DNA of 64,000 nt from the NCBI GenBank assembly GCA_963731265.1, contig CAVSUE010000001.1, positions 448,001-512,000 on the forward strand, written 5' to 3'. Within the stretch, counting starts at the first letter, position 1; each line of letters begins with the position of its first letter. The notes beneath the pieces are model-generated. The model saw nothing but the letters and a program-made list of their open reading frames with translations, had not been told where the DNA came from and made no database searches. The position numbers were made by a program, and so were the translations under genes. Of this stretch, positions 2,780 to 2,833 are shown one piece after another. Source of the DNA: an uncultured Verrucomicrobiae bacterium. Its GTDB lineage: Bacteria > Chlamydiota > Chlamydiia > Chlamydiales > Rhabdochlamydiaceae.

Positions 2780-2833
2780 AAATAAACACGTTTGAACACG
2801 TTTTTAGGAACAGTTGGACACAATAGATCGGGA
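2620..2833 (+). ncRNA. Putative TnpB omega/reRNA (scaffold at IS right end, guide from the right flank 2814-2833)
   Basis: Positional inference from known TnpB biology; 5' boundary is approximate. Confidence 0.5.

Follow-up and report, generated by a model that had tools for sequence, protein, structure and literature searches.

The window, that is, the whole stretch of 64,000 nucleotides that was analysed, includes near its left edge an IS607-type insertion sequence that interrupts what is left of a gene of an F-box/WD40 family. Two intact members of the same family (paralogs) lie further to the right and share a short site with the interrupted gene. The features of interest are the following.

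1 to 272, minus strand: fragment of a DDE (IS4/IS5-type) transposase (Pfam DDE_Tnp_1, E 1.5e-6)

241 to 615, plus strand: left piece of the C-terminal remnant, now dead, of a gene of the F-box/WD40 family; from 241 onwards it is homologous to the paralogs

611 to 615, plus strand: AAGAG, the putative transposon-adjacent motif (TAM) and TnpA target motif, of the RRGAG type found beside the left ends of the copies

616 to 2813, plus strand: IS607-type insertion sequence, 2198 bp, delimited by comparison of nine copies within the genome

664 to 1278, plus strand: tnpA, serine recombinase (NCBIfam transpos_IS607, Pfam Resolvase)

1259 to 2779, plus strand: tnpB, protein of the RNA-guided nuclease family, 506 amino acids from the ATG (Pfam Cas12f1-like_TNB)

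2632 to 2813, plus strand: predicted guide-RNA (omega RNA-like) scaffold obtained with RNAalifold, overlapping the 3' end of tnpB and ending at the right end of the element, ...AGGAACAG

2814 to 2833, plus strand: predicted 20-nt guide/target segment, the first bases of the right flank, so placed by its position after the right end and assigned its role by the IS607/TnpB model

2814 to 2981, plus strand: right piece of the remnant; identity to the paralogs is 81-89%, and there is a stop at 2871-2873

4970 to 4995, plus strand: GAAGAG followed by the homologous site (14/20) of the intact paralog 3107-5143

17055 to 17080, minus strand: GAAGAG followed by the homologous site (16/20) of the intact paralog 16907-18943

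The element has the features that define membership of the IS607 family: a serine-recombinase TnpA, a tnpB gene downstream of it near the right end, and multiple copies. The product of tnpA scored 201.5 bits with the NCBIfam equivalog model transpos_IS607 (cut-off 110) and E 7.6e-19 with Pfam Resolvase. The tnpB gene overlaps tnpA on the same strand and stops 34 nt before the right end at nucleotide 2813. There is no target-site duplication, as the flanks are contiguous when aligned to the paralogs, with zero duplicated bases. In the copies examined AG precedes the left end and AG closes the right end, i.e. the same dinucleotide is found at both junctions, and these last two bases of AAGAG are likely the crossover core dinucleotide.

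Copies were counted across the genome, which consists of 2.34 Mb in two contigs (C1 and C2). Nine were found, five of them full (2198-2207 bp), three without tnpA, and one disrupted, and the tnpB frame is open in eight of the nine. The full copies other than that of the window measure 2207 bp. Alone among the copies, that of the window lacks 9 bp, in frame, after about position 2728; this deletion is located in the C-terminal tail of TnpB and also in the predicted guide scaffold, where it maps to an unpaired stretch. A contig from sequencing run X2 spans the deletion site and is likewise without the 9 bases.

The three copies that lack tnpA, of about 1873 bp, are located in contig C1 at 57069-55197 (minus strand), 159569-161442, and 1169335-1171207. 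About 310 bp of tnpA are missing from them, a 52-amino-acid remnant frame being left; their 5' 280 nt are diverged (76% identity), their right ends are identical, and a 523-codon tnpB frame is open. They look like TnpB-only derivatives, immobile on their own. The same skip, of 309 nt (window 917 to 1227), is found in a contig of sequencing run X3. In the disrupted copy (contig C1, 860823-863609) an insert of about 900 bp, with an open frame of 325 codons, interrupts tnpB. Comparison of the contigs of four public sequencing runs with positions 1-3200 of the window yielded pieces of the element only, ending at 2813, and none over 2814-3200; one sequencing-run contig continues past 2813 into an unrelated flank.

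An earlier note on this DNA, made from the sequence, had placed the right end of the element at 2813 and a conserved motif, GAAGAG (610-615), 5' of its left end, and both assignments stood. The last 40 nt of the element (...TTTTTAGGAACAG), which reads AACAG at its right end, are identical in all nine genomic copies, divergence starting immediately after them. In three congeneric genomes (G018, G003, and G009) related copies stop at the same AACAG, with unrelated flanks, which confirms the right end at 2813. A reading in which the three bases at guide positions 3, 4, and 10 are part of the element was ruled out, since all other copies diverge right after AACAG. On the left, RRGAG abuts the end in eight of the nine copies, and in the ninth, named c682, AAGAG is found one base further out. 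The nine left flanks carry AAGAG five times (the offset copy included), AGGAG twice, and GAGAG and GGGAG once each, and the left flank of the G018 copy reads TAGAG. The GAAGAG of the window thus contains the RRGAG of the nine copies. RRGAG probably represents the TAM requirement of this TnpB, and the pair RRGAG/AACAG matches the published IS607 logic, according to which the TAM is also the TnpA target.

An RNAalifold consensus of the last approximately 250 nt, obtained from five sequences, has 71 pairs, five of them with compensatory change, mostly in one hairpin (alignment columns 127-151), and a long-range helix that closes on the terminal GGAAC. The single-sequence fold of the scaffold gave z = -2.39. 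A cmscan search of positions 1-3200 of the window at E up to 10 produced no match to an Rfam guide-RNA family, RAGATH-18 included, the output being six weak unrelated matches. A guide RNA is predicted to be produced from the right end of the element, and by analogy with known IS607 elements nucleotides 2814-2833 would act as its guide. The description of the locus as an IS607-type TnpA/TnpB element with the flanking 20 nt as guide is upheld in its anatomy, the role of the guide being that proposed by the IS607/TnpB model.

The TnpB protein is recognised by Pfam Cas12f1-like_TNB (47.1 bits, cut-off 26.3), and it scored 76.2 bits with NCBIfam guided_TnpB, below the cut-off of 100, and 22.6 bits with NCBIfam IS607_TnpB, for which the cut-off is 350. 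Its C-terminal part aligns to Cas12f and TnpB chains in the PDB. Residues D243, E345, D426, C398, C401, C416, and C419 do not vary across a 24-member alignment that includes the window's TnpB, and D426 aligns with the Asp of the ADYNAARN stretch in AsCas12f. From the known motifs, together with the latter alignment, we take D243/E345/D426 to be the RuvC D-E-D triad and the four cysteines to be the CxxC...CxxC zinc ribbon. An AlphaFold model made with the 24-sequence alignment had a mean pLDDT of 73, and its top Foldseek matches were all Cas12f, Cas12g, TnpB, ISFba1 TnpB, or Fanzor2; the best E was 4.6e-11 (prob 1.00), yet TM-scores were low (0.2-0.4). The model thus points to a TnpB/Cas12 fold. 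Inactivity of TnpB, which the earlier note had raised against its own reading, is not suggested by the protein, in which the invariant triad and the four zinc-ribbon cysteines are kept. We also considered a nuclease-dead repressor of the TldR type and rejected it, as the gene is inside a complete multi-copy insertion sequence and the intact RuvC triad argues against a repressor role without nuclease activity. Close homologues of this TnpB are numerous in metagenomes, and the named sources are MAGs of Rhabdochlamydiaceae or Chlamydiales. The clade of about 510 amino acids to which it belongs is abundant on metagenome contigs of about 2 kb.

The gene that received the element can be called dead because its N-terminal part has been replaced by the DDE transposase fragment and because a codon that is sense in the paralogs is an in-frame stop (2871-2873) in the right piece. 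The DDE transposase ORF runs on upstream of the window to nucleotide 447907 of contig C1 and abuts the 5'-truncated remnant; two different mobile elements, represented by this fragment and by the IS607 element, have hit this gene copy. The left piece lacks the F-box and WD40 portions and shows 79-84% identity to 10 paralogs taken one by one; no Pfam family was found for the C-terminal domain of the remnant. Both intact genes nearby, 3107-5143 and 16907-18943, encode F-box-like and WD40 domains. When the remnant is aligned over 543 nt with the 10 paralogs, pairwise identity is 80-86%; 61 positions (11.2%) depart from the consensus of the paralogs, and 36 changes (6.6%) are private to the remnant, that is, absent from the close paralogs. 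This private divergence is the highest of all family members, and it is so along the whole length of the remnant. The private changes fall on the three codon positions as 9/8/19, and this third-position bias indicates that the gene was still functional when much of the divergence accumulated.

Two other members of the family, at 1096053-1095497 and 831758-832282 of contig C1, have lost 29 and 44 nt internally from the aligned C-terminal region, and one of the two has in-frame stops in the alignment; therefore decay is not confined to the copy that carries the insertion sequence. On contig C2, at 151170-158089, the C-terminal domain family has four more distant members in tandem, about 2.1 kb apart and with about 71% identity, in which the site reads AAGAT and not RRGAG. 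An uninterrupted allele of the remnant was not found in a DNA search with 2814-3110 in its own genome and 25 relatives, where only other family members were matched; the unique intergenic part of this query had no match elsewhere in the 26 genomes, and an exact 27-mer of the right flank had zero matches in metagenome contigs.

The earlier note was concerned above all with the resemblance between the guide and the sister genes. Its counts were reproduced when recomputed. Nucleotides 2814-2833 match 4976-4995 at 14 of 20 positions, with mismatches at 3, 4, 10, 18, 19, and 20, and match 17074-17055 (reverse complement) at 16 of 20, with mismatches at 3, 4, 10, and 18, which are thus shared. GAAGAG is found directly 5' of both paralog sites, as it is of the left end of the element. 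Since nucleotide 4976 is the start of a codon in ORF 3107-5143, the differences at 3, 4, and 10 are non-synonymous, as had been stated, and that at 18 is synonymous. The search for a perfectly matching paralog that the note had recommended, carried out over the whole genome and both strands, returned the site itself as the sole 20/20 match. Matches of 16/20 number five, three paralog sites and two unrelated ones, and there are more than 100 unrelated matches of 14/20. The level of the match alone is within chance; the position of the matches directly behind the shared motif is not, and it is explained by paralogy, as the flanks align over 543 nt. An identity of 70-80% in the guide is about what is expected when the remnant is 80-86% identical to the paralogs. 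Compared with the family consensus, the guide segment has four mismatches in 20, three of them private, and at least as many mismatches are found in 14% of the 20-nt windows of the remnant. The remnant near the site is no closer to any paralog than it is elsewhere, beyond noise.

A further point raised in the note was that intact paralogs might carry TTGGAC natively; none of the 19 other family sites, close and distant, does so, while a compatible RRGAG is present at eight of the 19. A distant paralog was also considered as donor of TTGGAC and rejected: besides the absence of the hexamer from the 19 sites, G3 and G4 are found once each, in different distant members, and A10 in none.

The resemblance of the guide to the paralogs is most probably a matter of shared ancestry of the flank, the element being an ordinary IS607 insertion in a family member that had diverged and is now dead. 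The IS607-family element would have integrated at an RRGAG motif within this already diverged F-box/WD40 gene. According to the established IS607 model, RNA transcribed through the right end would carry the first approximately 20 flanking bases as a guide. Once TnpA has excised the element, TnpB would cut the rejoined site (AAGAG followed by those bases), with repair from an element-bearing copy, and the junction of the element itself would be spared because the right end reads AACAG and not RRGAG. Paralogy of the flank would be the sole reason for the resemblance of the guide to the sister genes; positions 3, 4, 10, and 18 would differ as part of the general 11% divergence of the remnant from the family consensus, most likely from before the insertion, and the near-matches in the paralogs would be without functional consequence.

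The element could also be where it is as a result of survivorship: if TnpB is active, insertions whose guide matches TAM-bearing paralogs would be lost through chromosome breaks, and the element would persist only in a member that had diverged beforehand. Several observations are consistent with such a process. Catalytic residues are kept and the tnpB frame is open in eight of nine copies; RRGAG is present at eight of 19 paralog sites, so that a guide acquired in a consensus-like member would match several TAM-bearing genes; and no paralog shares TTGGAC. Of the changes private to the remnant, three lie in the 10 nt next to the right end, and only nine of 534 10-nt windows (1.7%) hold as many. 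For an excess of divergence in the seed, which the earlier note had suggested looking for, the binomial p is 0.025 over the first 10 nt, 0.041 over 12 nt, and 0.14 over the 20-nt guide. These values are nominal, as the pattern was spotted before it was tested, in a single case, and p for the seed cluster is also 0.14 if the adjacent GG is counted as one event. Guide positions 3, 6, and 7, moreover, vary among the intact paralogs too, and the top private divergence of the remnant is found throughout and not just at the guide.

Among 21,806 RRGAG-adjacent sites the best match to the 12-nt seed of the window's guide is 10/12, the paralogs reaching 9/12, and the best chance seed matches of the guides of the other eight copies are 9-10/12; the seed match of the paralogs is no better than the best chance sites of those other guides. 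In copy c682, which can serve as a natural control, the guide has a 16/20 match behind AGGAG with its mismatches beside the motif, and they fall there because a MITE-like repeat begins at guide position 7. This palindromic repeat (about 172 bp, contig C1, 684569-684740) has terminal inverted repeats and approximately 38 BLAST matches in the genome, and c682 sits 6 nt outside its end. For ISFba1 TnpB (PMC11061315), one mismatch within positions 1-13 is enough to abolish or impair cutting. Such intolerance would fit survivorship; by analogy with this distant relative, three mismatches among the first 10 positions should keep the paralogs from being cut. Activity of TnpB in this host is presumed. 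Taking both sides together, we regard survivorship as unlikely, if deserving of attention. The general proposal that RNA-guided self-cutting limits where a TnpB transposon survives in a gene family, so that the element persists only in a member that differs after RRGAG from all 19 sister sites, we regard as decidedly doubtful.

The changes could instead have followed the insertion, the flank having once matched the paralogs and the changes at 3, 4, and 10 having been selected later to stop self-cutting. The same cluster of three private changes beside the right end would be its signature. However, the window's copy of the insertion sequence has, compared with all other copies, three private substitutions in 2198 bp (0.14%) besides the 9-bp deletion, and the corresponding value for the remnant, 6.6%, is about 47 times this. 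On the assumption of equal or comparable rates, fewer than one of the 36 private changes of the remnant would have occurred after insertion. Given the far higher divergence of the remnant, the changes at 3, 4, and 10 were most likely already present when the insertion took place. This timing is not absolute, since gene conversion among copies of the insertion sequence could make the window's copy seem younger than it is and so mask an older age. A 20/20 guide to several genes would, in addition, have been harmful from the first generation, with little time for three sequential changes. Escape of this kind is very unlikely. Of the earlier suggestion that seed changes avoid self-cutting there remains a weak local excess, which amounts to one marginal post hoc statistic on changes that most likely preceded the insertion.

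Action of TnpB on the paralogs, by homing into sister genes, break-induced gene conversion, or guide-directed repression, scarcely merits belief: in its favour there are only the near-matches behind a shared motif, while one of 13 right-end junctions (nine in this genome and four in G018, G003, and G009) is in the F-box/WD40 family, the 9/12 seed at the paralog sites equals chance sites of other guides, the remnant around the site shows no local approach to any paralog, and the triad is intact, unlike that of nuclease-dead TnpB-derived repressors. Homing among paralogs, as put forward in the note, has the junction count against it and, like gene conversion and repression, found zero support, the intact triad arguing against a repressor.

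Ordinary insertion into a diverged member thus remains the preferred reading: the element is a textbook IS607/TnpB insertion and its likeness to the sister genes is inherited. As by-products, the analysis provides a delimited element with its ends, RRGAG flank motif, AACAG right end, and predicted guide scaffold; a TnpB of a clade of about 510 amino acids that is common in chlamydia-like bacteria and barely recognised by curated models; and a quantitative template for tests of seed-mismatch enrichment in other such cases. Should survivorship prove true across many insertions, guide RNAs would impose a cost on the transposons that encode them wherever gene families abound in a genome. If a self-cutting constraint were true, selection could act on insertion sites through the compatibility of guide and paralogs in the repeat-rich genomes of intracellular bacteria. 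Among the abstracts covered by a literature search none deals with TnpB guides and host paralogs, and the words 'mismatch' and 'seed' are absent from PMC8612924, which deals with ISDra2 TnpB.

Three known systems can be compared with the element. ISDra2 TnpB (IS200/IS605; PMC8612924; PDB 8EXA, 8H1J) is, as the window's TnpB is by analogy presumed to be, an RNA-guided RuvC nuclease with a guide taken from the right flank, and the predicted fold of the window's TnpB matches the ISDra2 TnpB structures with E 2e-8 to 6e-6. The partner transposases differ: ISDra2 has a Y1 HUH enzyme and single-strand peel-and-paste transposition, whereas the window element has a serine recombinase.

The second system is ISFba1 TnpB (PMC11061315; PDB 8IAZ). 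The IS607 TnpB TAMs given in that article are AGGAG or GAGGG. Both systems would have a purine-rich TAM ending in GAG (AGGAG there, AGGAG or AAGAG among the flanks here) as well as a 20-nt guide, and the predicted fold of the window's TnpB matches 8IAZ with E 2.7e-7. The guide RNA of ISFba1-type IS607 TnpBs is derived from RAGATH-18, in contrast with the lack of a RAGATH-18 match noted above for the first 3200 positions of the window (E up to 10), and the window's TnpB is about 120 amino acids longer (506 vs 387).

The IStron of Clostridium botulinum (CboTnpA_S/CboTnpB), as described in a preprint (bioRxiv 10.1101/2023.11.20.567912), has the TAM TGGG, which is at the same time the TnpA target and includes the core dinucleotide; its right end, TCGG, differs from TGGG at -3, and in this way its own junction is spared. 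The window element, known from sequence alone, lacks a group I intron, has RRGAG with an AG core in place of TGGG with GG, and encodes a TnpB of about 510 amino acids, unlike CboTnpB. Common to both are a serine-recombinase TnpA accompanied by TnpB, a motif shared by TnpA and TnpB 5' of the left end, a guide from the right flank, and a near-copy of the motif at the right end that differs at -3, TCGG against TGGG in the IStron and AACAG against RRGAG here.
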